From: Cenococcum geophilum
Taxonomy: Eukaryota
DNA: 64,000 nt
Assembly (NCBI GenBank): GCA_050273025.1
Contig: CP158635.1
Coordinates: forward strand, 15,934,001-15,998,000
Reading direction: 5' to 3'
The position numbers and the translations under genes are program-made. The notes below the pieces were generated by a model. That model searched no databases and was not told the DNA's origin. It worked only from the letters and a program-made list of their open reading frames with translations. Shown here piece after piece: positions 936 to 25,796 of this stretch. The first letter of the stretch is position 1; each line of letters starts with the position of its first letter.

Positions 936-1049
936 AGCTTTATATAAATATATAGGCGTATAAATATATATTTTTATACTAGTAATTAATTATAGAATTT
1001 ATAGAAATAATTATATAGGAAATTATATAGATATTTATTTATTTATTTA

Positions 1050-2195
1050 TAGTAAGGCTAATAATATTATACGGCTCCTAGATCTAGGGCCTAGGACTAG
1101 GTAGTAAGGTATTAATAAAAAGCTCCTTAGCGTTATTAGCTAAGCTATAAAACTAGTACCTATATAGAACTATAGGGGTTTATAAAAAACACTACGCGCT
1201 ATACTATAATATAAAGTAGTAGTTCTACTAGTAGACTTATATATTAATATAACTACTATATAGAGAATAGTTATAGTATAAGGCTACTTAGTAAAAGAAA
1301 ATATATACTAAATACTAAAACGTATATAAGGATTAAGGGCCCCTTAAAAAGGTAATACGCCTAAGTATACTAGCTAGGAAGCCCTCTACCTATAGATAGT
1401 AAAGAAAGAAAAGAAAATATAGAAACTATTAGCTTACTAGATAGAGACCTAGCGCTATACTAGTAGAGTATTACTATAGTAATAGAGGATAAGAGGCTAT
1501 TAGTATAGATAGAGATCTACTATACTTATTTATAAAATAGGTAGACCTTAAATAGAAGCGATAATAGAAGGAGGTAGTAAAAATATAAGACGTAGCTATA
1601 TAGAATACCCTATAGTTAATACTAATACTCCTCCTATATAAAGGACTAATAAAGGTAAAATATATAACCGCCTTCCTACTATAGATAGAGATTTTAAGCC
1701 TAAATATATAGCTAGTAAGTATCTATATTTTAAATACTATACCTTAATACACTTATAGATAGCCTATTTAGTTAGTATACTATATACTACTTTTCTATAG
1801 CTACTACTTAGTAAGGTACTAGCTATTTACTAGTATAGGTATAAATAATATTACTTATACTCTCTATAAGTAGGGGCCTATAAGTAGTATTAATATTGCT
1901 TATAGGCTAAGGAGTTTTTTAGTAGTTCTAAATAGTATATAAGATTTAATAGGAGGACACTAAATGATATACCCCTTTTAGCCCCTTAGAGACTAAATAC
2001 CGCTATTTAGCTGTAGATAGTACGCTAATAAATTACTAGATACTCCTACTACCCCCCCCTAGATCTTTTAATATACCTAAAAAGTATAGTATATAAGGTA
2101 GACCTAAAGATATAAAGATATATTAGTTTGGTAAAGGTAGAATATATAAAACTAACTAAAAGGAAATACTTAGGATTTTCCCTTTATAGGGCCTT
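1050..2195 (+). mobile_element. RIP-degraded LINE (Tad1-like) 3' fragment
   Basis: De-RIP reading gives RPTMLYGSQIWG and LAKLQNQC..GAYxxTPRAALExEAAVPPLDLY, typical post-RT motifs of fungal LINE ORF2; extreme TpA enrichment. Confidence 0.75.
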
Positions 2196-2199
2196 TTCC

Positions 2200-5100: not shown

Positions 5101-6170
5101 TAATATATTCTAGGTAAGCTTACTATACCGCTTAGATACTATAGGTAATTAGGAAGAGGGCTAAAAGGGTTAATCTTTTCTCCCTTACGCCTATTTATAT
5201 CTATAGTAGTCGCTTTTATACTTTTGCCGCTTCTTATATACGTTTTATAACTATCTTCCTTAAGAGCCTTTTTAGGGTTAGTAGCTTTCTAAAATAGAGT
5301 AGTCTTTTTTATACCTTTTATAAGACGACTATAGTTATTACTTTAAAGTATTTAGGTAGTTTGCCTCTCTAAAGGTAGGTAGTTACGACGTTAGCAAATA
5401 GTATTACTACCGCTTTTACTACGGCTTTAATTGCCTTATTTAGGGTCTTATTTAGCCTTAATGCTTTACTAGTAGGGAGCTTTTATATAGCGTCCTTTAT
5501 TTCTTTTACTAATATTATATAACTTATATTAATAGGTAAGGGGTAAACTTAGCTACTAATATTCTATAGGTTTGTTTAGCCCGCGCCTAAAAAGAACTTC
5601 TATTAATATTTTAATATTTTCCTCGTTATTATTTATATACTAGTCCTATTCTATCTAATAAAGTATAAGTAGGTAAAAGTCCCCTAGCGTCTCTTTAGCA
5701 GCTCGCCTATTTTACTTTAATATATACTAGAGTCCCTTATTATATAGTTTAGTAGTATTTAAGGTAATTTCTTCTAGAAATTAGCGCTAGCTATTTCTAC
5801 TCTCCTTTTATATTATCTTCTTAGGCCTATTCTTTAGGGCCTTATAGCTCTATTAGTAGTAGGCTTTATTTATTACGCTATACTATTACCTTGCCCTTTT
5901 TCCGCCTATAAGTAGTTAGGCCATTTCTAGTGACTTTTTACGGTAGGCGTATTTTTTAGGCTAGGCCTTTAGGTAGTATTCTTTTAAGTAGTTACTTATA
6001 ATCCTTTAGATATTCTCTAGTAATACCTAAGGTATAGCTACTAGCCTATTAGTAACTTCCTAGGTATACTTTTTTTAAGTTAAATTTCTTAGTAACGTAT
6101 CTTTAGCGAGTTTGTTACACTAGTATAGCGACATTAAGCGTTATTTGTATAGGTATATAGTTTAAGATAA
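2200..6170 (-). mobile_element. RIP-degraded LINE ORF2 relic (RT domain through 3' region), interrupted by a nested LINE
   Basis: De-RIP motifs on the minus strand, in order: KKDYSxxxSYRP, KALEKIV, GIPQGSPLSPILFLFYI, GYVDD..AWAKRHGAKFAP (~3570-3700), LKVLGVWVDSRLNW, WGPSFKHARLLY. Confidence 0.75.
3716..4828 (-). mobile_element. Nested 5'-truncated LINE of a related subfamily
   Basis: AAT-rich tail at ~3716-3745; flanked by the 13-bp direct repeat TATCCTAGCTATT (3703-3715, 4829-4841). Confidence 0.7.
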
Positions 6171-7690
6171 CTACTAGCTTATCTACTTTATAAGGAAAAG
6201 AAGGGTAAGTAGTAACCTAGCCTTAATAGTAAATATCTAAGGCTATAAAGTAAAACTAGAAGCTACTCTTAAGGTCCTAGGGGTTTAGGTAGACTCTAGG
6301 TTAAACTAGAATAAGTATATTATAAAGACTACTTATAAGGGAGGAGTAGTACTTTTAGCAGTATTATAAATAACTACCTTAATATAAGGACCCTCTTTTA
6401 AATATATACGCCTACTATATATAGTAGTAATAAGGTTAATAATACTATACGGCTCCTAGATTAAGGGCCTAAGACTAGATAGTAAGGTACTAATAAAAAG
6501 CTCTTTAAAGCTACTAGCTAAGCTATAAAACTAGTGCCTATATAGAACTATAGGGGCCTATAGAAGAATACTACGCGCTATACTAGAACGCGAAGTAGTA
6601 GTTCTACTACTAGACTTTTATATTAACTTAACTACTATATAGAGAGCAGTTATAGTATAAGGTTACCTAGTAAAAGAAAATATATACTAAATACTAAAAC
6701 GTATATAAGGAACGAGATATATATAAGAAGTAATAGCCCCTTAAAGAGGTAATATGTCTAAATATACTAGCTAGGAAGCCCTTTACCTATAAATAATAGA
6801 GAGAAAAGGAAATATAGGAATTATTATTTTATTAGATAAAGACCTAGCGCTATACTAGTAGAGCACTATAATGGCAATAGAGGATAGGAGGTTACTAATA
6901 TAGATAGAGATTTACTATACTAATTATAAGATAGGTAGATCTTAAATAGAAGTAATAATAGAAGGAGGTAGTAAAAATATAGGACGCAGCTATATAAAAT
7001 ACCCTATAGTTAATACTAACTCTTCTCTTATATAAAGGACTAACGAGGGTAAAATCTATAGCTGTTTTTCTACTATAGATAAAGGTCCTAGGTCTAAATA
7101 TATAGCTAATATCTATATTCTAAATATCTTACCTTAGTATATAATAATAATAATTTATTACTTAACGTTTAATTTAGATCCCTATTAGGCCTATATAAAC
7201 TACTTCTTAGTTACCTTAATATATATACCAGTGGCCTATTTAGTTAATATATTATATACTACTATTTTATAGCTACTACTTAGTAAGGGACTAGATACTC
7301 TCTATAAGTAGGGGCTTATAAATAGTAGTAAAATAGCTTATAGGCTAAGGAATTCTTTAGTAGTTTTTAATAGCATATAAGATCTAATAGGAGGACACTA
7401 AATAATACGCCCTATTCTAGCCCCTTAAGGACTAAATACCTCCGCCTAGCTATAGGCAGCTTACTAGCGAATTTCTAGACCCTTTTACTACTCCTTTTAG
7501 GGTTTCTAATATACCTAGGAAGTATAGTATATAAGGTAGACTAGAAGATATAAAGATATACTAGCTAGGCAAAGGCGGAATAAATAGGACTAGCTAAAAG
7601 GAAATACTTAGGGTTTTCCCCTTATAGGGCTTTTTTTTATATAGACCTAAAAAGGGACCTAATTGGGCAATAAATAAAATTAATAATAAA
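6170..7690 (+). mobile_element. RIP-degraded 5'-truncated LINE with AAT tail
   Basis: Same thumb and post-RT motifs; tail ...GGCAATAAATAAAATTAATAATAAAA. AATTATATAG at 1021-1030 and 7691-7700 brackets the whole LINE nest. Confidence 0.75.
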
Positions 7691-7749
7691 AATTATATAG
7701 GTGGTTATATAGCTAATTATAGAACCTTCGTAGTATATTAGTGCTGTAT

Positions 7750-8400
7750 TAGTAGAGCTTTAAAGCTCTATATAAGGTTTTGAGTAGAGCTTTGAGCAGA
7801 GCCTTGTGCAGAGCTTTGAGCAGAGCCTCGTATAGAGCTTTGAGCAGAGCTTTGTGCAGAGCTTTAAGCAGAGCCTCGTATAGAGCTTTGAGCAGAGCTT
7901 TGTGCAGAGCTTCGAGCAGAGCTTCAAGCAGAGCTTCGAACAGAGCTTCGAGCAGAGCTTCGAGCAGAGCTTCGAGCAGAGCTTCAACCAGAGCTTCGAG
8001 CAGAGCTTCGAGCAGAGCTTCGAGCAGAGCTTCGAGCAGAGCTTCGAGCAGAGCTTCAACCAGAGCTTCGAGCAGAGCTTCGAGCAGAGCTTCAACCAGA
8101 GCTTCGACCAGAGCTTCGAGCAGAGCTTCGTGCAGAGCTTCGTGCAGAGCTTCAACCAGAGCTTCGACCACGGCTTCGACCAGAGCTTCGAGCGGAGCCT
8201 CGACCAGAGCCTTGACCAGAGCCTTGACCAGAGCCTCAACCAGAGCTTCGACCAGAGCTTCGACTGGAGCTTTAAGCAGAGCCTCGTGCAGAGCCTTGTG
8301 CAGAGCTTTATATAGAGTTTGTATTCATGCAGGCGTTCGTGCAGACGTCGTGCAGGCTTCGTGCAGGCTTCGTGTAGGCTTTCGTGCGTAGGCGTTTATA
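7750..8400 (+). repeat. 12-bp tandem array (GCAGAGCTTCGA)n, copy A
   Basis: Clear 12-nt periodicity; produces the spurious EALL/LCSK/RASS/QSFE ORFs. Confidence 0.95.
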
Positions 8401-8564
8401 CAGGCAGCGGAAGAGCAATAAAGCAGGTAATAAGGCCTAGAGTTAGTCTAGATATAATATATTAGCTATTTAGGTATTTATCTACTATAAATATTAATAT
8501 AGGAGGTTAAATGTTAAGGATTGGTAATAGTTAATAGCTCTAGCTAAATATTTACTATTTTAAT

Positions 8565-8885
8565 GGTAATATTTAAGGTAAAATATAGCAGTAACTATAA
8601 CGCCGTTTATAATAATTTTAGTAGCATTAAAATCGCCTTATAAAGCTCTAGAATATAATATTAGCCAATTATCTATAAAGGCGTTAGTTTGTTATTAATT
8701 AATAGTAATAAAGTTTTAAGCAGAGCTTTAAAGGGGAGATTTGCTTATTTAAGGCGAAATATAGTAGTAACTACCAGGCCGTTCGCAATAATTTTAGTAG
8801 TATTAGAATTGCCCTATAAAGTTCTAGAACATAACATTAACCAATTATTTATTAAGGCGTTAGTTCGTTATTAATTAATAGCTAA
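8565..8885 (+). repeat. Diverged tandem duplication with ~177-bp period inside the element (mirrored at ~9130-9450)
   Basis: TTAAGG..AAATATAG..GTAACTA...AATAATTTTAGTAG...AAGGCGTTAGTT.GTTATTAATTAATAG occurs twice. Confidence 0.7.
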
Positions 8886-9614
8886 AGGATTTAGTATAGC
8901 GCGTAAGTTTATATAAGAATTATATATAAATCGGCGCAAGGGACTAACAAATTTCCGAACCGTATACTAGACAATAACAACATAAAATGATTAGCCTATT
9001 ATATAAGCAGCTTATAATTAGTTAATTATCTAGGACCGAGATAAGTCTAGTACACGGTTCAGAAATTTATTAGTCCCTCGCGCCAATTTATATATAATTC
9101 TTATACAAACTCGCGCGCTATACTAAATTGTTTAGCTATTAATTAATAACAAACTAACGCCTTTATAAATAATTAGCCAATGTTATATTCTAGAACTTTA
9201 TAAGGCGATTCTAATGCTACTAAAATTATTACGAACAGCCTAGTAGTTATTACTATATTTTGCCTTAAATAAGCAAATCTCCCCTTTAAAGCTCTACTTA
9301 AAACTCTACTACTATTAATTAATAACAAACTAACGCCTTTATAGATAATTGGCTAATATTATATTCTAAAGCTTTATAAGGCGATTCTAACGCTACTAAA
9401 ATTATTATAAACGGCGTTATAGTTACTACTATATTTTACCTTAAATATTACCACTAAAATAGTAAATATTTAGCCAGAGCTATTAACCATTACCAATCCT
9501 TAATATTTAACCTCCTATATTAATATTTATAGTAGATAAATACCTAAATAGCTAATATATTATATCTAGACTAACTCTAGGCCTTATTACCTACTTTATT
9601 GCTCTTCCGCTGCT

Positions 9615-10155
9615 TGCATAAACGCCTACACGAAAGCCTACACGAAGCCTGCACGAAGCCTGCACGACGTCTACACGAACGCCTGTATGAATATAAACTC
9701 TATATAAAGCTCTGCACAAGGCTCTGCACGAGGCTCTGCTTAAAGCTCTGGTCGAAGCTCTGGTCGAAGCTCTGGTCGAAGCTCTGCTCGAAGCTCTGCT
9801 TAAGGCTCTGGTCGAGGCTCCGCTCGAAGCTCTGGTCGAAGCCGTGGTCGAAGCTCTGGTTGAAGCTCTGCACGAAGCTCTGCACGAAGCTCTGCTCGAA
9901 GCTCTGCTCGAAGCTCTGCTCGAAGCTCTGCACGAAGCTCTGCTCGAAGCTCTGCACGAAGCTCTGCTCGAAGCTCTGCTCGAAGCTCTGCTCGAAGCTC
10001 TGCTCGAAGTTCTGCTCGAAGCTCTATACGAGGCTCTGCTCAAAGCTCTGCACAAAGCTCTGCTCAAAGCTCTATACGAGGCTCTGCTCAAAGCTCTGTA
10101 CAAGGCTCTGCTCGAAGCTCTACTCAAAACCTTATATAGAGCTTTAAAGCTCTAC
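9615..10155 (-). repeat. 12-bp tandem array, copy B (mirror of 7750-8400)
   Basis: (GAAGCTCTGCTC)n periodicity. Confidence 0.95.
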
Positions 10156-10867
10156 TAACACAGCACTAATATACTACGAAGGTTCTATAATTAGCTATAT
10201 AACCACCTATATAATTATTATTATTAATTCTATTTATTGCCCAATATAGTCCCCTTTTAGGTCTATATAGGAAAAAGCCCTATAAGGGGAAAATCTTAAG
10301 TATTTCCTTTTAGCTAGTCCTATTTGTTCCGCCTTTATCTAGCTAGTATATCTTTATATCTTCTAGTCTACCTTATATACTATACTTCCTAGGTATATTA
10401 GAAAATCTAAAAGGAGTAGTAAAAGGGTTTAGAAATTCGCTAGTAAGCCGGCTATAGCTAGACGGGGGTATTTAGTCCTTAAGGGGCTAGAATAGGGCGT
10501 ATTATTTAGTATCCTCCTATTAGATCTTATATGCTATTTAAAACTACTAAAGAATTCCTTAGCCTATAAGCTATTTTACTACTATTTATAAGCCCCTACT
10601 TATAGAGAGTATCTAAGTAATATTATTTATGCCTACGCTAGTAAGTAGCTAGTCCCTTACTAAGCGGTAGCTATAAAATAGTAGTATATAATATACTAAC
10701 TAAATAGGCCACCGGTATATATATTAAGGTAACTAAAAAGTAGTCTATATAGGCCTAATAGGGATCTAAATTAGACGTTAAGTAATAAATAAATATTATT
10801 ATATATTAAGGTAAGATATTTAGAATATAGATATTAGTTATATATTTAGACCTAGGACCTTTATCTA

Positions 10868-11018
10868 TCCCTTATAACGCTAAGGTCTAACACTTAGGCT
10901 ATATTATAAGCCCATATAAGGAACACCACTTAGCTATACGCAAGGGAATTAGAACTTAGGGCTTCCTATTAGCTAAGCCTTATTAATACTATTATGCCCA
11001 TCTTAGCGTTATAAGGGA
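10868..11018. mobile_element. 151-bp MITE with TA TSD, specific to copy B
   Basis: TA|TCCCTTATAACGCTAAG ... CTTAGCGTTATAAGGGA|TA; empty site in copy A near 7070-7085. Confidence 0.85.
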
Positions 11019-11095
11019 TAGTAGAAAAACGGCTATAGATTTTACCCTCGTTAGTCCTTTATATAAGAAAAGAGTTAGTATTAACTATAGGGTAT

Positions 11096-11288
11096 TATTT
11101 ATATTAACTTAATAATATAAGTAAGTTATATCTAGGGGCACGAAATACATATAGTATTATATACTCTTTTAGATGGTGGTAACTTTTTCTTTTAATTATA
11201 TATAAATAGGAGGAATTTAAGGGGTTTCCTGAGCTCGCTTAGCTTATATGATTACGTCTATAAATTCTTATGCAAACTTATTTAGATA
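11096..11288. mobile_element. Probable solo LTR (193 bp), specific to copy B
   Basis: Insertion relative to A, flanked by the 5-bp direct repeat GGTAT (11091-11095, 11289-11293). TA...TA ends are compatible with RIP-mutated TG...CA. Confidence 0.65.
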
Positions 11289-14200
11289 GGTATTCTATAT
11301 AGCTGCGTCTTATATTTTTACTACCTCCTTCTATTATTAGTAACCTTCTATCCTCTATTACTATTATAGTACTCTACTAGTATAACGCTAGGTCTTTATC
11401 TAATAAGATAATTATTTCCTTATTTCCTTTTCTTTCTATTATTTATGGGTAAAGGGCTTCCTAGCTAGTATATTTAGGCATATTACCTCTTTAAGGGGCT
11501 ATCGCTTCTTATATATATCTCGTTCCTTATATAGGTTTTAGTATTTAGTATATATTTTCTTTTACTAGGTAGCCTTATACTATAACTACTCTCTATATAG
11601 TAGTTAAGTTAATATATAAGTCTAGTAGTAGAACTACTACTTCGCGTTCTAGTATGGCGCGTAGTATTCTTCTATAGGCCCCTACAGTTCTATATAGGCA
11701 CTAGTTTTATAGCTTAGCTAGTAGGGCTAGTAAGCTTTTTACTAGTACCTTACCGCCTAGTCCTAAGCCCTAGATTTAGGAGCCGTATAGTATTATTAGC
11801 CTTACTACTACTATATATAGTAGGCGTATATATTTAAAAGAGGGTCCTTATATTTAGTTATTTATAATACTGCTAAAAGTACTACTCCTCCCTTATAAGT
11901 AGTCTATATAATATACTTATTCTAGTTTAACCTAAAGTCTACCTAAACCCCTAGGACCTTAAGGGTAGCTTCTAGTTTTACTTTATAGCCTTAGATATTT
12001 ACTATTAAGGCTAGGTTACTACTTACCCTTCTTTTCCTTATAAAGTAGATAAGCTAGTAATTATCTTAGACTATATACCTGTATAGATAACGCTTAATGT
12101 CGCTATACTAGCGTAACAAACCTGCTAAAGATACGTTACTAAGAAATTTAACTTAAAAAAGTATACCTAGGAAGTTACTAATAGGCTAGTAGCTATACCT
12201 TAGGTATTACTAGAGAATATCTAAAGGATTATAAGTAACTACTTAAAAGAATACTACCTAAAGGCCTAGCCTAGAAAATACGCCTACCGTAAATAGTTAC
12301 TAGAAACGGCCTAACTACTTATAGGCGTAAAAAGGGTAAGGTAATAGTATAGCGTAATAAATAAAGCCTACTACTAATAGAGCTATAAGGCCCTAAAGAA
12401 TAGGCCTAAGAAGATAATATAAAAGGAGGGTAGAAATAGCTAGCGCTAATTTCTAAAAGAAATTACCTTAGACCCTACTAAACTATATAATAAGGGACTC
12501 TAGTATATATTAAAGTAAAGTAGGCGAGCTGCTAAAGAGACGCTAGGGGACTTTTACCTATTTATACTTTACTAGATAGAATAGAACTAGTATATAAATA
12601 ATAATAAGGAAAATATTAAAATATTAGTAGAGGTTCTTTTTAGGCGCGGGCTAAACAGACCTATAGAATATTAGTAGCTAATTCTACCCCTTACCTATTA
12701 ATATAAGTTATATAATATTAGTAAAAGAAATAAAGGACGCTATATAAAAGCTCCCTACTAGTAAAGCGTTAAGGCTAAATAAGGCAATTAAAGCTATAGT
12801 AAAAGCGGTAGTAATACTATTCGCTAACGTCGTAACTACCTACCTTTAGAGAGGCAAACTACCTAAATACTTTAAAGTAATAACTATAGTCGTCTTATAA
12901 AAGGTATAAAAAAAGACTACTCTATTTTAGAAAGCTACTAACCCTAAAAAGGCTCTTAAAAAAGATAGTTATAAAACGTATATAAGAAGCGGCAGAAGTA
13001 TAAAGCTACTACCATAGATATAAATAGGCTTAAGAAAGAAAAGATTAACCCTTTTAGCCCTCTTCCTAATTACCTTTAGTATCTAAGCGGTATAGTAAGC
13101 TTACCTAGAATATATTATATCTATACTAAGCCTAGACCTAAGCGGAATATTTAATTATATATTATATAAGAGATTTCTATAAATCCTAAGAAATAAAGGC
13201 CTATTAAACTAGATAATTAAGTTTATCTAAGCCTTTTTAATAGGGTGTACTATAAAAATTATAATTAAGGGCTATAAAAGCGAATTAATACTAATACCTA
13301 TAGGTATTATATAGGGATTACCCCTATTTCTAATTCTAATTCTTTTCTTTATATTTAAACTACTAGAGATATATAATAATAGCTAGAATAATAGCTATAT
13401 AGAACTATAGGGGCCTATAAAAGGACACTATATACCATAATAGAACGTAAAGTAGTACTACTACTACTAGACGTATATATAGAAGCAACTGCTATATAGA
13501 GGGCATCTATAGTATAAGGCCACCTAGTAAAGAAGAAGATATACTAAATAGTAGAGCGTATATAAGGAGCAAGGGCCCTATAAAGAAGCATTACGCCTAA
13601 GCTTATAAGTTAAAAAGCCCTCTATCTATAAGTGGTAGAAAGAGAATAGGAAATATAAGAGCTACTATAATACTTAGAGCTACGCTAGTAGAGCACTATA
13701 GTAATAATAAAGGATAGGGGGCCACTAGTATAAGTGGAGATCTACTATATATATCGCAAGATAGGTAGATATTAAGTGAAAACAATGCTAAAAGAAGGCG
13801 GTAGAAGCGTAGAGAGGAACTACATAGAGTACCCTATAAATAATATTAACTTTCTCTCTATATAAAGGACAGATAAAGGCAGAATTTATAGCCGCCTTTC
13901 TATTATAGATAGAGGTCTTAGGGCTAAACGTATATCTAGTAAGTATCTATATCCTAAATACTATACTATACTATACGTATAAATAGCCTATATAGTTAGT
14001 ACGCTATATAATACTCTTCTATAACTACTATATAGTAAAAGACTAGCTATTTACTAGGGTGGGCATAAATTATATTACTTAAATACTATTTATAAGTAGG
14101 GGCCTATATAAAACAGTATAATAGTTTATAGGTTAAGTCCTCTAGTAGTTTTAGATAGCGTATAAGATCTAATAAGAGGATATAGGGGATAGGCCCCTTT

Positions 14201-17174
14201 TTGGCCCCTTAGGGACTAAATAACCCTACTAAGCTAAAGGCAGCTTATAGGCGACTTACTAGACCCTCCTACTACCCCCTAGATCTTCTAAGATACCTTA
14301 GAAGTATAGTATAAAAGGTAAATATATTATAAAGGTAAATAGGCTAGGTATAGGCGGAGCGCATAAGACTAGCTAAAAGGAAACACCTAGGTTTTTCCCT
14401 TATTAGGGATTTTTCCTATAAATAGAAGGTAGAAGCCTATATAGACCTAATAAAGGGACTAAATCGGGCAATAAATAGAATAAATAAATAATAATAAGAA
14501 TAGCTAGGATATAATAGTCCTAGAATATATAGATAATATAAGCCTAATTATATAGGGAAATATAGTAGTAGAAAACTATACTAGGCTAAACTAGGCATAT
14601 AATAGGTATATTATATAGGCAAAACAATATAGCGCTAAATTCGTACTAAATAATTACTAGCTTATTTACTTTATAAGGGAAAAAAGGGTAAGTAGTAACC
14701 TAGCCTTAATAGTAAATATCTAGAGCTGCGAAGTAAAACTAGAAGCTACCCTTAAGGTCCTAGGGGTTTAGATAGACTCTAGGTTAAACTAAAACAAGTA
14801 TATTATATAGGCGACTTATAAAGAAGTAGTAGTATTTTTAGTAGTATTATAAATTACTACTTTAATATAAGGACCCTCTTTTAAATATATACGTCTACTA
14901 TATATAGTAGTAGTAAGGCTAATAATGTTATACGACTTTTAAATCTAGGGCTTAGGACTAGGCGGTAAGGTACTAGTAAAAAGCTTCTTAGCGCTACTAG
15001 CTAAGCTATAAAACTAGTACCTATATAGAACTATAAGGGCCTATAGAAGAATACTACGCGCTATACTAGAACGCGAAGTAGTAGTTCTACTACTAGACTT
15101 ATATAGTAACTTAACTACTATATAGAGAGTAGTTATAGTATAAGGCTACCTAGTAGAAGAAAATATATACTAAATACTAATATATATATAAGGAGCGATA
15201 GCCCCTTAAAGAGGTAATACGCCTAAATATACTAGCTAGGAAGCCTACTACTTATAAGTAGTAAAGAGAGAAAAGGAAATATAGAAACTATTAGCTTACT
15301 AAACAGAGACCTAATACTATACTAGTAGAGCGCTATAATGGTAATAGAGAATAAAAGGTTACTAATATAGATAGAAATCTACTATACTAATTATAAGATA
15401 GGCAGATCTTAAATAGAAGCGATAATAGAAGAAGGTAGTAAAAATATAAGACGCAGCTATAAAGAACACCCTATAGTTAATACTAATAAAGGTAAAATCT
15501 ATAGTCGCCTTTCTACTATAGATAGAGGGTTTAGGCCTAAATATATAACTAGTAAGTATCTATATTTTAAATACCTTACCTTAATATATATATGGGTGGC
15601 CTACTTAGTTAGTACGCTATATATTACTATTCTATAGTTACCGCTTAGTAAGGGACTAGCTACTTACTAGTATAGGTATAAACAATATTACCTAAATACT
15701 CTCTATAAGTAGAGGCCTATAGGTAGTAATAAGATAGCTTATAGGCTAAGAAGTTCTTTAATAGTTCTAAATAGTATATAAGATCTAATAGAAGGATATT
15801 AAAGGGTACGCCCTTTTCTAGCCCCTTAAAGACTAAATACCCCTACCTAGCCGTAGGTAGTACGCTAGCGAATTACTAGATACTTTTACTACCCCCCCTA
15901 AATCTTCTAATATACCTAAAAAATATAGTATATAAGGTAGACCTAAAGATATAAAGATATATTAGTTTTATATATTCTACTTTTACTAAACTAATATATC
16001 TTTTTATCTTTAGGTCTACCTTATATACTATACTTTTTAGGTATATTAGAAGATTTAAAGGGGGCAGTAGGAGTATCTGGTAATTTATTAGCGTACTACC
16101 TATAGCTAGGCAGCGGTATTTAATCTCTAAGGGGCTAAAAGGGGTACATCCTTTAGTGTCCTCCTATTAAATCTTATATACTATTTAGAACTACTAAAAA
16201 ACTCCTTAGCCTATAAGCTATTTTAATACTACTTATAGGCCCCTACTTATAGAGAGTATAAGTAATATTATTTATACCTATACTAGTAAATAGCTAGTAC
16301 CTTAGTAAGTAGTAGCTATAGAAAAGTAGTATATAGTATACTAACTAAATAGGCTATCTATAAGTATATTAAGGTATAGTATTTAAAATATAGATACTTA
16401 CTAGCTATATATTTAGGCTTAAAATCTCTATCTATAGTAGGAAAGCGGCTATAGATTTTACCTTTATTAGTCCTTTATATAGGAGGAGTATTAGTATTAA
16501 CTATAGGGTATTCTATATAGCTACGTCTTATATTTTTACTACCCCCTTCTATTATCGCTTCTATTTAAGGTCTACCTATTTTATAATAAGTATAGTAAAT
16601 CTCTATCTATACTAATAGCCTCTTATCCTCTATTACTATAGTAGTACTCTACTATTACGGCGCTAGGTCTTCGCCTAGTAAGCTAGTAGTTTCTATATTC
16701 TCTTTTCTCTCTTTACTACCTATAGGTAGAGGGCTTTCTAGCTAGTATACTTAGGCGTATTACCTCTTTAAGGGGCCCTCGATCCTTATATACGTTTTAA
16801 TATTTAGCGTATATTTTCTTTTACTAGGTAGCCTTATACTATAACTATTCTCTATATAGTAGTTATATTAATATATAAGTCTACTAGTAGAACTACTACT
16901 TTATATTCTAGTATAGCGCGTAGTATTCTCTTATAAACCCCTATAGTTCTATATAGGTACTAGTTTTATAGCTTAGCTAATAGCGCTAAGGAACTTTTTA
17001 TTAATACCTTACTACCTAGTCCTGGGCCCTAGATCTAGCAGCCGTATAGTATTATTAGCCTTACTATAAATAAATCAATAAATAAATATCTATATAATTT
17101 TCTATATAATCATTTCTATAAATTCTATAATTAATTACTAGTATAAAAATATATATCTATACGCCTATATATTT

Positions 17175-18025
17175 ATATAAAGCTCTATATAAAGCTCTAT
17201 ATAAGGCTCTATATAAGGCTCTATATAAAGTTCTATATAAGACTCTATATAAAGCTCTATACAAGGCTCTACTTAAAGCTCTACTCGAAGCTCTGCTCAA
17301 AGCTCTGCTTAAAGCTCTGCACGAGGCTCTGCACGAAGCTCTGCACGAGGCTCTGCACAAAGCTCTGCACGGGACTCTGCACGAAGCTCTGCTCGAAGTT
17401 CTGCTCGAAGCTCTGCAGGAAGCTCTGCAGAGGCTCTGCACGAGGCTCTGCACGAGGCTCTGCACGAGGCTCTGCACGAAGCTCTGCACGAAGCTCTGCA
17501 CGAAGCTCTGCACGAAGCTCTGCACGAAGCTCTGCGTACGGAGGCTCTGCTCGAAGCTCTGCGTACGGAGGCTCTGCACGAAGCTCTGCGTACGGAGGCT
17601 CTGCACGAAGCTCTGCGTACGGAGGCTCTGCACGAAGCTCTGCGTACGGAGGCTCTGCACGAAGCTCTGCGTACGGAGGCTCTGCACGAAGCTCTGCGTA
17701 CGGAGGCTCTGCACGAAGCTCTGCGTACGGAGGCTCTGCACGAAGCTCTGCGTACGGAGGCTCTGCACGAAGCTCTGCGTACGGAGGCTCTGCACGAAGC
17801 TCTGCGTACGGAGGCTCTGCATAAAGCTCTGCATGAAGCTCTGCACGAAGCTCTGCGTACGGAGGCTCTGCATAAAGCTCTGCATGAAGCTCTGCACGAA
17901 GCTCTGCACGAAGCTCTGCACGAAGCTCTGCACGAAGCTCTGCAGAAGCTCTGCACGAAGCTCTACGCGGAGCTCTGCGTAGGGCTCTGCGTAAGCCTCT
18001 ACTAAAGCTCTGCGCGAGGCTCTAC
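17175..18025 (-). repeat. Expanded 12-bp array of copy B containing a 27-bp higher-order unit
   Basis: (GAAGCTCTGCAC)n plus ~12 copies of GAAGCTCTGCGTACGGAGGCTCTGCAC at ~17527-17872. Confidence 0.95.
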
Positions 18026-18519
18026 CTAAAGCTTACCCCCTTCTATAAAGCAAATCTATACCTACTAGTAGTCCTTAGTTATTATTTAAAGCTGGCTCGT
18101 CGGTTTGGGTACTCTAGCTACAGTAGGAAGAGGGCGGCGGTGGTCGTGGGCTGCTACGACTCGGGGGCGTCGGGCGCGACGACGAGATAACGAATTAGAA
18201 TCGGGCAAATCGGGCAACGTAGTCTTCTTCGCCAGGTTTGCTTTGGTAATTCTAGCCATTAGGAATAGTTTAGGGAGCTATAAGAGTTGAGACAATTTGG
18301 CTCAAAGTAGGTGTATATAGGCCTAAATACCCCGCGCGGGACTAACAAAAATCCGAACCGTGTACCAGACCTTCTAACGAAGGTCTTGCCAAAAGCGGCT
18401 AGCGGCTTGGCAAGGTAAGCCTTGGCAAGAAGGTCTGGGAACGAGACAACCGATACGTGGCCGGGTATCCTAAAAGGGTGTAGGGCATCTACCTCACGGG
18501 CCAAGTAGGGTCCCTCCCA

Positions 18520-18685: not shown

Positions 18686-19439
18686 TAATTATATGTCACT
18701 TATACGCATGCTTACGTATCTTAACTCGCTCTATGCTAGTACTAGCCTTACACTCGCTTGCACAATTAGCTTCTACTTTTACACCCTACTAAACTCTACC
18801 CCGCACACTCCCTAGAACGCTTAGTACATCCTTTACCTTATTAGTTTTAGTTTTAAGCAGAGTATCCCTTGCCGCGCTAAACAACAGTACATACTGGACG
18901 GTACTGGTGGCTCGTGTACTCTAGAGCCGGGTTCCGCCACATGTGGCTCGATCTTTCCCTCAACCTTTCTCTCCCCTCGAATTCAGTATATCTCGACAAC
19001 GGTGTGACCCGGAGCCGGCTAACCATCCTCCCTGCTAGCGCTATTGGCGTATACTACGTTTAAATTGTATTAATAAGCTTAGGTGTCATCATAACACCTT
19101 GCTCTCACAATGGCAAATGAACTAAATTTGAGTATAGCCGGTGTGGCTTCCGCAAAAGATATAGAGCATTCAGGAAAACAACGTCACCTTTAGCTGGTCT
19201 TACTATGAAAGGACGGGCTAACAAGGATAATATATATGCGATGGCTTCGGTGCTGACTGACCAACGCTAAGATCGATTCTCAAGCTTTACTAGTAGATTG
19301 GTCTATGAGGATTTCCACCGCCGTGTTTCGACGATTGTTCTTTTGCAGCCAAGAGTGGTATTCTACCGTCTCCATCATCATAATCCAGGTTAGCTCCCTT
19401 ACCTAGTAGGAGTTGGACGACCTCACCATGCCCATTGAC

Positions 19440-20050
19440 CGCTGCCTAACACAGCGGGGTGCGCCCGGCTTGATCCCGAGAATTGACATCAACCATATTG
19501 CTTGCCAGAGGAGCTTTAATCACAATACGTGTCCCTTTGAAGCTGCTCGCGACAGCGGGGTGAGACCGCGAATATACCTCAGGTTGGGATCTACGCCTTC
19601 CCGAAGCTGTCTCGTTGCCCATTAGTAGCAGCATTGTTAAGCTGTGTAAGTTTGATCCAAACTAGGTTGTACTCAAATCCGTGTCGTTTGCGAGCAAGTT
19701 TGTAGCACGCGTCCTTGACCACAAATAGCAGCCGCCTTAACAGAATTCGCATTCACGATCATGCTCGCCATGTGTACCTTCAGTTTAGTGCTCGGGAAAT
19801 AGTGACACCAGCTGGTGGCCGCTCAGCTCGTTGCCCGCCGCTGCCTTGACCACCTCTTCTGTAATCAAAACATCGGCCCCTCCTCGATCGAGCAGAAGCA
19901 TCACTACTTCCCTTCCACTCTCCCTATTCCCCGACGCTGCCTTGATCACCCCTTCTGTAATAGGGGCATCCGCCTCTCTTCGATCAAATAGAAGCCTCAT
20001 CACTTTGTCGCTAGTTCCTGCTACTGCCTTGACCACCTCTTCCCATCCCA
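19440..20050 (-). pseudogene. Fragment of ankyrin-like repeat region, as in fungal NACHT/HET proteins
   Basis: Repeats LLLDR.GADV.ITEEVVKAAAGN, plus ankyrin-like VDVNSRDQAGRTPL, in broken frames. Confidence 0.65.
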
Positions 20051-20070
20051 CCCTCGAACCATACCCCTAC

Positions 20071-23000
20071 TTACTTACAACTCCACCACGTCCAAAGAAT
20101 CCACCAACACGTCTTGCAATTCTCCCCACCATGCGGCCAATGCAACTTCCCATCATCCCCGAACGATGGCGCCGCTCCAGGACACGACCACTCGACGATC
20201 ACGACGAAGAGACACAGCGCGGCGACCTTGGCTACCACCACCGACATGAACTGGCAGTAGCCGTTCTCCGGGGCGCAGGCGACCAGCGCCGTGAAGACGA
20301 CCCCGAGAATCAGCAGCACCAACGTGATCGGGAAGAGGGCAGCGATGAGTGCGAGGGCGGCCGCTACGACGACGGCGACGACAATGCCGCGCAGGATGAT
20401 GCCGGCGGCCCAGACGAGCCACTCCCCGACGTCGAGCTCGGGGACGGGCACGCGGACGGAGAAGGATGGGAGGCGCCAGGGCTCGCGAATGGCGCCGAGG
20501 ATGTCGGCGCGCGCGTGCTCCGTCGTCCACTCCGTCTCAAACCAGTCCTCGTTGTACGACGGGAAGCGCGAGGTCAGGTCTGACGCGAAGTTCTTTCGGC
20601 TCATTGTCCCGGCTCCCGGCTGCAGGTACGAGTCGAGGTCCAGGTGGGACACCTGGCCCAGGTCGAGGAAGCCGATTTCGATCTCGCGCAGGCGCATCAG
20701 GCCGATCTTGGGCCGGTGGAGCGTGATGGAGTTGGTGAAGTCTTCCTCGTAGAGGGCGGGGCCGGTCACCCTGCACGACTTTCCAAGATGCTCCCATCCC
20801 GGGGGCAGGTTTCCTAATAGCGACGTGGTTTCGCTTGGGGCGGATTGGGGGTTGTCCGTCTGGGATGTCTTCCGACTGAGGAGAATGTGTCGCTGTAGCA
20901 CGGTGACGGCCGCTTTATTGCCGGCCAACTTGAGGTCTGTGATTGCCGTTGCCTCGGAACCGCGTGGGCCAGGTGAGGTCATGTAATTTCTGGTGGTCTC
21001 GGCCATGTGCTCGTCGTCCATGACCTCATCAAGCCTTCGACAGATTTCTGCCATGACTGTGGGAACGATGGCAGGACGACAGTGCCTAAGATACATACTG
21101 AAGATGGACGAGCCCGGCCCGCTCGTGCTAAAACTTAGCTTTTGTTCAACACGCGCCCCGAACTGGAGAAGGAGTAGGAACCGGTCGAGACATTCTGACT
21201 CGTTGAGGAACTTGGGATCGCTTATGAACTCCCAAGTAAGGCTGGAATTCGACAAACCCAGTACGTCTGATTTTCCAATGGGCCCATTGCAGAGCCATGC
21301 AAGAGTCCTTATGTCGACTGGTGGGTCCAATATGAGCGCCCTCGCGAGCAGGTTGACGCCCATATCCCCCTTGGTCCACCACTTTAGCCGCACCCGACTC
21401 CTGAAGCGTGCGTAGCAATAAAGATCCTCCCTATTGCTCAACTTCCCTTCCCAAGACTCTATGGCATCCTTCATCAGCCGGAAAAGCTCTTGTGTATCCT
21501 TCTGGCGTCTTTCGGAACGGAATAATTTCATACTGCGATAATTGTCATCATATGTCAAAGGAACCGCTGATGCGGGGCCAAAACCCTCTTCTTCGGTCGT
21601 TTCTACTACGATTACTGGCGCTTTTGGCGGCAATGGAGTCGAATCTGTGTGGTTTTCGCTATCTGAGTCGACGACGATGAGCGGAGTATCTAGAGAGTCC
21701 TGGCCGGAATCGGAGTGCTCGGCGTCAACTGGTGCGACAACGACAAGTGGCGCCTTGGTGTTATCGTCCGCGGATATCGTGTGGTCGTCAGTGGCGGTGA
21801 CTGGTGTAAGGGGAACTATAGCTGTATCACGTAGCCACCAAGACCTCTCTTTGTACCTAGCCCTTACGGCGAGCGGCAACGGTTCGTAGGTTGTAAGCTC
21901 ACCGGCTGGTGTCTGCCCTTGTTGCTCCAATGCGATAGATGCTGGGCAGAGTGTCAACGGAGCATTGCTCGCAAGCCCGTTATCCGGTGACGATTGCGTG
22001 CGCTGAGCAGCTTTTCTCGCCTCATCGACTTCTTTAGCCGAGGACTCCAAGTACTCCCACGGTCTGTAATCCCTTGAATCTGGGTACGGCTTCAGAGTTT
22101 GCTCGAGTACGGCCCTAACTCGATCGGCAAGGCGACGTTTACTTCGGGACATCCACCTCCTCCCCCCCAAAAAATCGTCGATATCAGCCTTAGCATCCAG
22201 CAGCCCCGGGTCCTTCGGCGGCGGCTCCCCTCGCCGGAAGAAGCTGCACCAAACCACTAAGCCGTAGACGAAGAGGTCACACTTCCGGAGACCTTCAAAG
22301 TCGTGCTTGTCGTCGGCTTCAGCTCTCGGTGGCAGCCACTCTTCGGTTCCGTAGTAAGACTCCTTCTCCTCCCGAATCTCTAGGGGAGTCTCGTTTGCAG
22401 GGGGCTCTTCTTCAACTTTGCCATATGCGCACCCAAAGTCACACAATTTTGCGCGGAACCCATTAACATGGTGTCTAAAGATAAGCACGTTTTGCGGCTT
22501 AAGATCACCATGTGTGAAGCCATTCTCGTGCAGGCTACCCAGGCCATGTCCGATATCGATGCACAGGAGTCGTACGACCTCATACGGGTCTTGTGTCAGT
22601 CCGATGAACTGTGACAGAAAGCTTCCAGTTGATCTAAATGCCGAGGCTGGAATCGATACGCCGATTTTGTGCGGTCGGCAGGCCGAAATACCTCGTTCAA
22701 CTTGAATATCGGGGGCGTATTCCCGGGTGGGGAATAGACGGCGCAGAAATTCCAGGAGATTCCATTCCGCTCTTTCAAGGACGAGGATAGGAGTTTGGAG
22801 ATAGCGACAGCATGGACTGTCGTGTGATTCAAGCGTGTCTAGGCACAGGCCCCAACCCATGAGCTGGACTATATTGGGGTTATTCCGAAAGAGATTCGGG
22901 GAGAGCGCCAAGACTTCGCATTCGGCTGCTCGAAAACGATTTGCAAGGTCATGTTCACTGCGTTCGACCTCTTGGGCCTGAGAGTTGGCATCCTGCGGCT

Positions 23001-23409
23001 GGTGGTTGACTTGTTTCGCCTGGTATTGTTTAATTGCAATGAGGTTCACTGGCCAGTGCTTAAGGTAGTTTTTGTCGGCTTTCCTGTAAAGCTTTGCGGA
23101 CTTTTCGTTGATCCCCCGAACGTTACCCTGGCCTCCTTCTCCGAGGGGTTTCGAAAATTCCTGTTCAAGTCGGAAGAACTGTGGTCCGGGCACCTGATTC
23201 GTCTCCAAGGTTCTGAGTAATCGATTGAGGACGGCGATGTGATTACCGCCGGTTTCACGGCGACTTCGAGACAGCTGCGCGCTCGCTGACACGGAAGAGG
23301 ATCTTGAAGGTGTTGGCGATATCGACAATTGCAGTTTTCCCCTCGCGCGCGTTCGCGCCTTCGTGCCTGGGCGCTTGCGGTTTAACCACGTAGGGGTGGA
23401 GGGCGACAT
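20071..23409 (-). CDS. Single-exon protein kinase (~1112 aa) with a WW-like motif and C-terminal transmembrane helices
   Basis: Motifs LGEGGQGNV, IAIK, NPNIVQLMGWG, HGDLKPQNVL, KLCDFG, YYGTEEWLPP, KCDLFVYGLVVW. LPPGWE...LY...T...RP motif and long hydrophobic segments near the C-terminus. Start placed at MSPSTPTW (23409); the ORF is open to 23730. Confidence 0.85.
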   Translation of the reverse strand: MSPSTPTWLNRKRPGTKARTRARGKLQLSISPTPSRSSSVSASAQLSRSRRETGGNHIAVLNRLLRTLETNQVPGPQFFRLEQEFSKPLGEGGQGNVRGINEKSAKLYRKADKNYLKHWPVNLIAIKQYQAKQVNHQPQDANSQAQEVERSEHDLANRFRAAECEVLALSPNLFRNNPNIVQLMGWGLCLDTLESHDSPCCRYLQTPILVLERAEWNLLEFLRRLFPTREYAPDIQVERGISACRPHKIGVSIPASAFRSTGSFLSQFIGLTQDPYEVVRLLCIDIGHGLGSLHENGFTHGDLKPQNVLIFRHHVNGFRAKLCDFGCAYGKVEEEPPANETPLEIREEKESYYGTEEWLPPRAEADDKHDFEGLRKCDLFVYGLVVWCSFFRRGEPPPKDPGLLDAKADIDDFLGGRRWMSRSKRRLADRVRAVLEQTLKPYPDSRDYRPWEYLESSAKEVDEARKAAQRTQSSPDNGLASNAPLTLCPASIALEQQGQTPAGELTTYEPLPLAVRARYKERSWWLRDTAIVPLTPVTATDDHTISADDNTKAPLVVVAPVDAEHSDSGQDSLDTPLIVVDSDSENHTDSTPLPPKAPVIVVETTEEEGFGPASAVPLTYDDNYRSMKLFRSERRQKDTQELFRLMKDAIESWEGKLSNREDLYCYARFRSRVRLKWWTKGDMGVNLLARALILDPPVDIRTLAWLCNGPIGKSDVLGLSNSSLTWEFISDPKFLNESECLDRFLLLLQFGARVEQKLSFSTSGPGSSIFSMYLRHCRPAIVPTVMAEICRRLDEVMDDEHMAETTRNYMTSPGPRGSEATAITDLKLAGNKAAVTVLQRHILLSRKTSQTDNPQSAPSETTSLLGNLPPGWEHLGKSCRVTGPALYEEDFTNSITLHRPKIGLMRLREIEIGFLDLGQVSHLDLDSYLQPGAGTMSRKNFASDLTSRFPSYNEDWFETEWTTEHARADILGAIREPWRLPSFSVRVPVPELDVGEWLVWAAGIILRGIVVAVVVAAALALIAALFPITLVLLILGVVFTALVACAPENGYCQFMSVVVAKVAALCLFVVIVEWSCPGAAPSFGDDGKLHWPHGGENCKTCWWILWTWWSCK

Positions 23410-23952
23410 TACCTCAATGCAGCGATAGATAACGAACTCGATTCCCGAAAGAGCCAATGGTGGTCGACTATTCGCCGCCGTTCCAAGGGTAAACTGAAGA
23501 AAATATACCAGAGTCAAGCAAAACGGGGAAAAAAGAGTGAGGCATCCGGACGATGCCAAACAAGGCTGAGGGCCCATTCTCAACTTCAGCTGAACAACGC
23601 TGCGTGCAAAAAGGGTCCATCGGTCGCGGCATGCCCTCTGTCGAGACAGCCATTCATGGTGCTGAGATACATTGTGGCTGACGGCGGCGACGCAGCTGGC
23701 GGCAGCTCCAGTCGTTAAATGGAGCGCCATGCCGCTAACTCAGGGTCCAGCCGTCTTCTCAGACGCCTCCCTGCCCGAACCACACGATTTTGCTGCATCC
23801 CATCAGCAATGGAAACAAAATGAGGCAATGATGCCAGCCGCGTCCATTTCCCGAGGGAATGCGAAGGCGACTCGGCTGAGAGCGAGGTGCATAAAGATGC
23901 GGAGGCTACGGTCCTTTCCTGACACCTTTCAGCCCTCTCCCGCAAATCGAAG

Positions 23953-25796
23953 ATGGAACCTATCAGCCTCTCTCTCGCCGTTGTGGGGACGTTCAAGGAT
24001 GCATATCTCACGACAAAGTTCATCAGGGACTCTGCGCGTTCCATCAAAAATTATCGCACCGAACAGGCGAGCGTGGTGACGCACTTGAACGTCCAGATCC
24101 TGAGACTGAAGAACTTCTCCCGCATATTTTGTGGCGTTAATGGAAATATTGTGGACCTGAAGTTCCTTGAAACCGTGCCGGATGTGCGTCTAATGGAGTC
24201 CTCTTATGAAATCATACTAAAGGGACCTAGCAATATCTCCAGACCGTCCACGACGTCCTACGGGAGCTCCAGGTGGTGCTGGCCGCCTATACCACGTTCG
24301 CAGCGAATTTGGATGAGGAGTATCGGAAGTATTCGCCGGCCAGCCCCCAGTTCAGGTTCGATCCTTCCAAGGACGTCCTTCTAATAGACGACGTCGCACC
24401 ATCCGAAGAGGCACAGCCGGATACAGGCGACGCAGATAGAAAGCATAATGGTACCCCAGCGGAAGCGAAGCGGAAAAGTTGGTTCTCTTTCGGTCGCAGT
24501 TCGGGGAGCTCCAAGCCGAAGAAGTCCTCATCGAAGCCGGAGATGAAACTACCTCCAGGACTTCAGTGGCTACTTACGAAGGGTGACCTAGAAGAGACAC
24601 TAAGAAGATTCCAGGTATGGAATGATGACCTGGAGCATCTGGTTGGTTCGCTACTGGTCGGCTTCGGTTTCTACGACAATAAGTCTCTTCAAGAGAGACT
24701 GAAATCTGACGGAGACGAGAACATGTTCAAAGGCCACCTCGAATTAAAGATGCTAACCGAAGAGGAGGAGGAAAATGATATTAAGGATGTGGAGAGTTCT
24801 GAAGGTGACGGACGGCCTCAAATTCATAGCTTGGGGCAGAACTAACCGGACTTAGACAAACCCTTACCGTGGAGCGCAGCCCAAGAGAAGATATCACAAC
24901 CTAGAGTGCTGGTAGAGTATAAGCAGCTTGGAGAGGCTATCAAACGAGACGAAGAGGACGCAGAGGCCGGAATCATAAGCGAGCCAAACCGGGAGCAGTA
25001 TGCACCCCAACTGGCCAGGCTCCTGAGGACGGCAGGGGAGCACAACTTCCGCACCCTTCGCCTGAATGGGTACTCTTGGGACGCCGATCAGGTCCAGTTT
25101 GCGTTTCTCTTTGACTATCCCCCAAATGCTGGCTCCCGTGAGCCGCAGAGTCTCTACGACTGCATCCTCGCGAGCGATGGGCCATTCAAGCTCGATTTAA
25201 AGTACCGCTTCCACGTCGCCCAGACGGTGTCTAGGGCAATCGGGGCGTTCCACTCGGACGGCTGGGTACATAAAAGCATACGCTCGCACGCGATAAAGTT
25301 CTTCTTCAGCGTAGATGGCCAGAGGTGTAACTTTAGCAATCCGTATTTGACCGACTTTGAGTTTTCGCGACCTGAGGGCGGCAAAACCCGCCTGGCCGCC
25401 CGCGCCGTGGATGTCGAGAGAGACGTGTACTTGCACCCTGAGCGGTACGGCCTCAAACCGAATGCGAACTTCCGGCGAATCCACGACATCTATTCTCTGG
25501 GGGTTGTCCTCCTAGAGATTGGGCTCTGGCAGACTGCAAAGGAGATACATGACGACATCATCGAGTGCAATCTGGATGGGGACCGGCCGACTGGCGGGCT
25601 GCCCGCCCAAACGATCAAAAAAGCATTCCTGCAGGATGCGGAATCGCGGCTGCCGCATCGCATGGGCAATGCATATAAGGAGGCCGTCATTTCATGCCTT
25701 GACGGCAAATGGGACCAATACGTGGGACGGGAATTCGAGAGCGAGTTTCAGAAGCAGGTTATCCAGAAGGTGGATCCCAGGGCCTGGATGAGTTAG
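23953..25796 (+). CDS. HeLo/HET-S-like N-terminal domain + kinase-like (pseudokinase) domain protein
   Basis: Exons 23953-24183, 24231-24804, 24856-25796; GT..CTAA..AG introns restore frame. N-terminus MEPISLSLAVVGTFKDAY..., later L..FQVWNDDLE.L. C-terminus VLVEYK, WVHKSIRSHAIKFF, PYLTDFEFSRP, YLHPER, HDIYSLGVVLLEIGLW. Confidence 0.8.

Follow-up and report, generated by a model that had tools for sequence, protein, structure and literature searches.

A 64-kb stretch of the Cenococcum geophilum genome (contig CP158635.1, positions 15,934,001 to 15,998,000, referred to here as the window and numbered from its first letter) contains, at 20071 to 25796, two divergent neighbouring genes, the left one for a protein kinase with all its catalytic motifs in place and the right one for a homologue of MLKL, the executioner of animal necroptosis. 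Because the identical pairing recurs in other genomes, it is more than chance, and we regard the conserved two-gene module as real. For its function we favour, at a probability of roughly 0.5, a model in which a membrane-anchored kinase would control the adjoining MLKL homologue, most likely by phosphorylation, with a necroptosis-like death or defence response as the result. The parts of the module are the following.

20071..23409, minus strand: kinase gene (left), a single-exon open reading frame (ORF) of 1112 codons plus stop
20167..20430, minus strand: C-terminal hydrophobic membrane-helix region of the kinase, residues 994-1081, from a Kyte-Doolittle scan
20515..21582, minus strand: conserved C-terminal domain of the kinase, residues 610-965, from the AlphaFold2 (AF2) model and invariant columns
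21997..23286, minus strand: protein kinase domain, residues 42-471, from AF2, Pfam and Foldseek
23410..23952, no strand: 543-bp stretch between the start codons, from coordinates, presumed to be a common divergent promoter
23953..24183, plus strand: exon 1 of the MLKL-like gene, 77 codons, from orthologue comparison
24184..24230, plus strand: intron 1, 47 nt, GTGCGT..TAG
24231..24804, plus strand: exon 2, with the remainder of the HeLo-type domain, a disordered linker and brace-like helices
24805..24855, plus strand: intron 2, predicted, 51 nt, GTGACG..ACTAAC..TAG, with ACTAAC as branch site and an in-frame TAA inside
24856..25796, plus strand: exon 3 and stop, with the pseudokinase domain from about 24903 to 25793

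The left ORF runs from stop to stop over 23739-20071 on the minus strand, and translation from the ATG at 23409 gives a protein of 1112 aa whose start agrees with the N-termini of its homologues in the alignment. The database model of the same gene, P0003, is 100% identical to the window kinase over 999 aa and uses an earlier in-frame ATG, which adds 107 residues that are common to no homologue. The right gene occupies 23953-25796 on the plus strand and, after removal of two introns from its three exons, encodes 581 aa, beginning at the ATG at 23953 with MEPISLSLAVVGTF. Intron 1 was predicted because it is needed to join the reading frames, and the resulting exon 1/2 junction, LETVPD followed by QYLQTV, agrees with LETVPNQYLQTV in the orthologue. 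The spliced protein gives full-length alignments to two orthologues, P0001 of Zopfia rhizophila (66.6% identity over 584 columns) and P0002 of Fusarium lateritium (54.9% identity). An initial annotation, made from the DNA letters, had described two divergent genes with start codons at 23409 and 23953, 543 bp apart, and both lie where it placed them; the two short introns of the right gene are an addition to its description. The motifs that it read in the proteins are likewise present, GEGGQG at residue 90, IAIK at 124, HGDLKPQN at 300 and DFG at 324 of the left protein, and HKS at residue 407 and DFE at 435 of the right one, in which GxGxxG is found nowhere.

A search with the left protein returned 60 matches besides the window's own P0003, with E-values from 1.9e-256 to 9e-70, and all those that carry an organism label are fungal. 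We aligned the window protein with 39 of these homologues, having dropped those of low coverage, and found that G92, K127, E165, H300-G301-D302, K304, N307 and D324-F325-G326 are invariant in all 40 sequences, so that the hallmarks of an active kinase (Gly-rich loop, beta3 Lys, alphaC Glu, catalytic Asp and Asn, DFG) are complete. Pfam Pkinase matches the left protein with 46.9 bits (E 3.1e-12), compared to a curated cut-off of 31.7, and judged by these motifs it is a catalytically competent Ser/Thr kinase. The catalytic loop reads HGD, not HRD, in 40 of the 40 aligned kinases (window residue 301), and since the arginine is thus replaced by glycine throughout, this is a non-RD kinase family. 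Non-RD kinases are frequently tied to innate-immune signalling.

The AF2 model of the left protein has a predicted local distance difference test score (pLDDT) of 71.9 overall and of about 90 across the kinase domain, in which an insert at residues 238-262 is poorly modelled. A disordered linker (472-609) leads to the conserved C-terminal domain, which is modelled as helical repeats (633-850) followed by a small beta unit (872-924), and in which R668, R670, W705, L706, G709, G712, L745-747, G751, G871, W872, R948 and F949 are invariant. This domain matches no Pfam family, and in a Foldseek search with the model only kinase domains were matched; a language-model look-up (about 110 shared features) and the motif LLLLQFGAxVE provide a weak lead that it may be ankyrin-like. 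Beyond it, the model contains two long hydrophobic helices (994-1043 and 1051-1075) of low pLDDT, and hydrophobic C-terminal segments are found in 55 of the 60 homologues.

The linker of the kinase holds, at residues 554-602 (21606-21750, minus strand), the three stretches PLVVVAPVDA, PLIVVDSDSE and PVIVVETTEE, which have the form P-[VIL]-hydrophobic-x4 followed by acidic or Ser-rich runs and resemble motifs of the SUMO-interaction type. They are particular to the kinase of this strain: 2 of the 60 homologues match, and these only within the membrane helices.

For the right protein, we scanned exon 3 against 1.84 billion representatives and obtained 3842 relatives at E<=1e-3, of which 122 remain at E<=1e-30. 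Many of them measure 540-600 aa and carry their kinase-like part in the C-terminal half, and in the relatives whose catalytic loop fitted the pattern, H-K/Q-S/G-x-x-S-x-N replaces HRDLKPxN. A profile was then made from 66 full-length relatives, namely P0001, P0002 and 64 of 150 listed representatives picked by length, and was compared with 177,635 solved sequences. Mouse MLKL came first (4btf, E 2e-9), followed by rat MLKL, a second mouse MLKL sequence and the MLKL entry 6lk5, the four MLKL matches having E-values of 2e-9 to 1.1e-6, and after them by IRAK4 (E 4e-6). In the profile alignment, HksirS of the family lies over HRNISS or HGKIRS of MLKL, and gFE over the GFE of MLKL; the two families thus have identical degenerate motifs, GFE and H-x-x-I-x-S. 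While GFE is the family consensus at the DFG position, the window protein has DFE, and it has also lost the HRD Asp and the Gly-rich loop. Possible phosphosites in the activation loop are conserved to differing degrees: S170 (numbered within exon 3) is present in at least 90% of the family, and Thr is the commonest residue at its position in the stretch GxTRL. The general Pfam model Pkinase detects exon 3 at an E-value of 0.0076 only and matches 20 of the 66 relatives. The family DUF7580 (PF24476) matches 62 of the 66 at E<=0.01; exon 3 of the window alone has no DUF7580 match at E<=1, and P0002 reaches 22.2 bits against a cut-off of 27. Taken as a sequence relationship, a kinase fold that is specifically MLKL-like is supported by these comparisons.

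The death domains HeLo and HELL of fungi are relatives of the MLKL four-helix bundle (4HB), and the head of the right protein leans, by several sequence comparisons, to the HeLo side. The N-terminal part of the 66-relative profile matches the HeLo domain of HET-S (2wvo, E 0.002; 2wvq, 0.0055; 2wvn, 0.0087), and Pfam HeLo (PF14479) matches 21 of the 66 relatives at E<=0.01, the best at 2.2e-8; it is also a precomputed assignment on P0234 and P0070, both members of the clade of linked genes that is described below. When residues 1-285 of P0001 were submitted to a language-model look-up, the nearest clusters were HeLo (0.92 with 187 shared features, and 0.91). In the AF2 model of P0001 (pLDDT 86.1, predicted TM-score (pTM) 0.88), residues 3-29, 37-56, 77-111 and 197-224 form long helices, 139-179 are a disordered loop, 247-283 make up brace-like helices, and the kinase fold sets in at 288. 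In the family alignment M1 is nearly invariant, and the first helix of this model is a long one. The initial annotation had seen in the right protein a HeLo-type head on a degenerate kinase fold and had drawn an analogy to MLKL; the former is supported by the sequence evidence, and the latter holds by homology, through the profile and the degenerate motifs.

The link between the two genes was followed into other genomes by combining the locus tags from the kinase search with those from a search with the alignment of right orthologues (E<=1e-40, best 120 of 228 matches). Linkage here means neighbouring locus tags or contigs of equal length, irrespective of orientation and spacing. Consecutive locus tags for the kinase and the right orthologue were found for 9 of the 27 named kinase homologues, given here as kinase / partner.

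Fusarium lateritium: ACHAPT_011013 / 14
F. solani: NW759_011027 / 28
F. sp. LHS14.1: NCS52_01347600 / 700
F. pseudocircinatum: FPCIR_13874 / 73
Monosporascus sp. mg162: DL768_007122 / 21
Monosporascus sp. CRB-8-3: DL769_011221 / 20
Zalerion maritima: MKZ38_008444 / 45
Clarireedia jacksonii: ACMFMG_007839 / 38
Colletotrichum gloeosporioides: GCG54_00006857 / 56

Xylaria sp. FL0043 is a weaker case, with ids two apart on an equal-length contig, and weaker evidence of the same kind, both proteins on equal-length contigs, exists for Zopfia, Thelonectria, F. graminearum, Sarocladium, Mollisia and two further pairs. The linked pair thus occurs in Hypocreales, Glomerellales, Xylariales and Lulworthiales of the Sordariomycetes and in Helotiales of the Leotiomycetes, and in Dothideomycetes at the contig level only. 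Across 18 pairs, the pairwise distances among kinases and among partners are correlated with r 0.91, a value that none of 5000 permutations reached; as far as distances between sequences can tell, this shows a shared history, not co-adaptation. A FastTree phylogeny of 92 right-family rows (the window protein and 91 relatives of at least 440 aa) puts all 16 rows with linkage evidence into a single 40-row clade with support 98, inside which an inner clade of 25 holds 14 of them, while none of the 52 rows outside the larger clade is linked. A second Zopfia paralogue, which is on another contig, falls outside the linked clade, and the Dothideomycete copies are nested among those of Sordariomycetes and Leotiomycetes. 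A metagenome scan with the kinase alignment, which used generic kinase-motif patterns, yielded no orthologue, the 80 loci out of 80 being unrelated kinases with at best 28% identity over a long stretch. Locus tags, contigs, distances and tree together bear out the conserved kinase partner in other fungi that had been proposed as a check.

Contigs from three other sequencing runs (X1, X4 and X11, each from a different study, carrying two organism labels and, in one case, "fungus metagenome") cover the region from 19500 to about 26300 and agree with it in every letter, apart from one segment: they skip exactly 24805-24855, the predicted intron 2. These contigs are genome-like because the intergenic stretch and intron 1 are present in them. 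The exact absence of 51 nt in three runs fits the predicted exon junction and leaves the predicted reading frame. The segment is a DNA-level presence/absence polymorphism of an intron, or a very young insertion, and no second copy of it occurs within the 64-kb window. If intron 2 were not spliced in the window strain, the right product would end after the head and the linker. Balancing selection, for which a test had been suggested, has left no sign in the form of a balanced polymorphism, given that the three assemblies are letter-identical apart from the 51-nt intron; as far as these three runs go, alleles this uniform speak against a recognition locus of the hypervariable kind.

These observations can be assembled into a tentative mechanism. 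The right gene would encode a fungal MLKL homologue consisting of a HeLo-type membrane-attacking head, brace-like helices and a non-catalytic pseudokinase that acts as a switch, and the left kinase would be its dedicated regulator, kept at the membrane by its C-terminal helices. The helical-repeat domain of the kinase probably takes up the signal or binds the MLKL-like partner. The kinase most likely binds the pseudokinase domain of its neighbour and phosphorylates it, which would change the release of the HeLo domain; once released, this domain would permeabilise the membrane, and a necroptosis-like death or a defence response would follow. The gene models, the catalytic or degenerate state of the motifs, the sequence relationships to MLKL and HeLo, the conserved adjacency and the correlated divergence are observations; we infer the physical interaction, the phosphorylation, its activating direction and the lethal output. 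A more specific version, in which fungi possess a heritable "kinase plus MLKL" death cassette and a membrane-anchored sensor kinase directly licenses the adjoining MLKL homologue, is one that we put forward as possible, and with considerable doubt.

Several observations weigh against this model. The kinase is not RIPK-like in particular: in a comparison of its profile with solved structures, PBK, TGFBR1, IKK-alpha and MNK outscore RIPK1 (E 5e-8), and by fold c-KIT, FGFR2 and EGFR lead. A motif search for the RHIM core [IV]Q[IVLC]G found none in the window kinase, and the pattern occurs in 9 of the 60 homologues, in 8 of them at residues 782-881 of the C-terminal region and in 1 near the N-terminus. 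The kinase had initially been called RIPK3-like, a name that does not stand in its literal sense, since a kinase without RHIM and without special affinity to RIPK3 or RIPK1 can be compared to them by analogy of role, not by homology. A similar caution applies to the pseudokinase, whose model ranks by structure closer to BRAF (Z 19.7-20.2), IRAK1 and the JAKs than to MLKL (Z 16.6). Its affinity to MLKL therefore rests on sequence, not on fold rank, and going by the model the domain is structurally a kinase fold of the TKL/TK-like type. At the other end of the protein, Pfam HeLo scores 20.4 bits (E 5e-4) on the closest orthologue P0001, which is under the cut-off of 23.2, and gives no match to the window exons scanned singly; the 66.6%-identical P0001 stood in for the spliced window protein. 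Fold searches with the whole orthologue, including Foldseek against the Protein Data Bank (PDB), returned kinase domains only, and a structure search with an Atlas model of the orthologue (pTM 0.56) gave no usable match. The right gene is whole in the window strain only if the 51-nt segment is spliced, as predicted, and an RNA-seq run that bears the same species name (X21), with 3 reads over 7 kb, is uninformative on expression or splicing. Finally, 12 of the 27 named kinase homologues are without a partner among the best 120 of 228 matches, which may be a real absence or an effect of the listing.

The last point bears on the simplest alternative, that the two genes are neighbours without any functional coupling, held together by chance or by nothing other than a common promoter. 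While the partnerless homologues and the unread orientation and spacing in other genomes would be compatible with it, adjacency persists at about 40% identity of the kinases and 45-65% identity of the partners, in at least nine genomes of two classes, and all 16 linked rows lie within a single clade of the partner family, which makes this alternative very improbable. If the genes are coupled, the sign of the coupling might be the opposite of the one proposed: the kinase could silence the MLKL-like protein by inhibitory phosphorylation or stable binding, the two forming a guard or toxin-antidote pair in which death follows loss, inhibition or removal of the kinase. The close conserved linkage and the correlated divergence are just what one would expect of a killer and its restraint, because these must be inherited jointly, and human RIPK3 is said to keep MLKL inactive ahead of death, which we count toward such a restraint. 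In the best-known precedent, as far as it is described in the accessible part of PMC12881547, the phosphorylation is nonetheless activating, and we consider the silencing arrangement unlikely.

The output, too, could differ from the lethal one of our model. In a non-lethal signalling pair, the pseudokinase would be an allosteric partner or scaffold and the HeLo-type domain would serve only to direct the protein to the membrane, where the pair would pass on a stress or defence signal; the presence of membrane-directed parts in both proteins suits such a role. Against it, the hydrophobic N-terminal helix is kept throughout the family, with its nearly invariant M1 and long first helix, and the HeLo domains that HET-S and HELLP carry are described, in the available portion of PMC12881547, as membrane-targeting death domains, so that we regard a purely signalling function as rather unlikely, without dismissing it. 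The pair could also be an allorecognition (het-type) locus that kills when incompatible alleles meet after hyphal fusion. HeLo proteins and linked pairs are typical of fungal incompatibility systems, according to the same portion of PMC12881547, and the locus adjoins repeat-rich DNA. Such a locus, however, should be hypervariable or lineage-specific, whereas this pair is kept as orthologues across classes and has no divergent alleles in the contigs of the three other runs; we therefore hold this explanation to be quite improbable. The model that we retain remains that of a membrane-anchored kinase controlling its MLKL-like neighbour toward death or defence.

The surroundings of the module contribute little to its interpretation. 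On the left lies an AT-rich block of about 16 kb (1001-17000; GC 0.28-0.39 vs 0.45-0.62 in genes), as expected of repeats degraded by repeat-induced point mutation (RIP). On the right follow genes for GH16, SMC, an RRM protein, a dynein light intermediate chain, F-box/WD40, ATG17, a metacaspase and a patatin-like protein. Coordinates of individual neighbouring features are the following.

19290..20066, minus strand: decayed repeat fragment, two DUF7104 repeats (Pfam E 4.2e-28) followed by frame-shifted ankyrin-like pieces
45470-46405, minus strand: metacaspase (Peptidase_C14), Pfam E 3.6e-31
53201-54226, minus strand: patatin-like fragment, E 7e-6, below cut-off
62302-63468, plus strand: ATG17

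The decayed DUF7104/ankyrin fragment is located directly downstream of the kinase stop and is probably outside the module. A 33-nt contig at 19837-19866 has a depth of 470 in run X11, compared to about 90 for the locus, and the repeat is therefore multi-copy in the X11 genome. The metacaspase, the patatin-like fragment and ATG17 are found between housekeeping genes at distances of 20-40 kb from the pair, and their presence is probably a coincidence. The idea that the setting itself marks an immune locus has come out weak, with AT-rich DNA and a decayed repeat on one side and ordinary genes on the other: the setting is a border between gene-rich and repeat-rich regions, which by itself is no mark of an immune locus. 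Also on the left side, at 17131-18032, all six frames are open for about 900 bp because the DNA is a tandem minisatellite, with translations that include runs of SFVQSLRTQ and AELRAEPPY.

The interest of the pair lies in the question of how fungal MLKL-like proteins are controlled. The known fungal activators are NLRs, which act via amyloid templating, and the searchable papers name no kinase in control of an MLKL-like protein of fungi; a conserved, physically linked and catalytically intact kinase is a concrete candidate for this missing control step. Whether fungi have a kinase-driven necroptosis-like pathway is thereby reduced to a question about two genes, and one clade of the very large HeLo/DUF7580 family is singled out as the place to look. 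If the cassette described above were true, the logic of a kinase acting on MLKL would either be older than the split between animals and fungi or have been invented twice, and the patchy spread of the pair would go back to an immune module that was transferred or was lost repeatedly.

The architecture of the right protein is already known: a 2025 review notes, in one sentence of its accessible text, the fungal combination of HeLo/HELL with a (pseudo)kinase (PMC12881547), and the right protein, with DUF7580 in 62 of its 66 relatives, is of this architecture. The dedicated linked kinase is the new result. A partner kinase linked to a fungal MLKL-like gene is unmentioned in the accessible portions of PMC12881547, PMC10197012 and PMC9815663, and full-text literature searches for DUF7580, fungal MLKL and gene pairs, which covered neither subscription papers nor supplements, retrieved no dedicated partner kinase. 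Outside the fungi, plant MLKLs likewise combine HeLo with a pseudokinase, as compared here by description only, from part of a preprint whose available text does not mention a linked dedicated kinase. With HET-S and HELLP the right protein has in common, as far as its sequence indicates, a HeLo-type N-terminal domain with a hydrophobic first helix. According to the available part of PMC12881547, what activates HET-S and HELLP is an NLR, by amyloid templating that works via a prion-forming motif at their C-terminus, whereas the right protein ends in a pseudokinase and its linked gene encodes a kinase, not an NLR. With animal MLKL, the right protein has its predicted domain order in common (4HB/HeLo, brace, pseudokinase), and animal MLKL is the best solved sequence match of its family's pseudokinase (E 2e-9), with a likewise degenerate loop and no Gly-rich loop. 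It differs in that its head is nearer to the fungal HeLo domain of HET-S, the N-terminal stretches of MLKL being matched at i-E 2.4 and 72 only, and in that a long disordered loop interrupts its helical domain (139-179 in P0001). RIPK3, which together with RIPK1 is the MLKL-activating kinase of animals, has no counterpart to the large conserved C-terminal domain and the membrane helices of the left kinase, and the latter lacks the RHIM core; like RIPK3, however, the left gene encodes an active Ser/Thr kinase, judged by its motifs, that is genetically tied to an MLKL-type pseudokinase.

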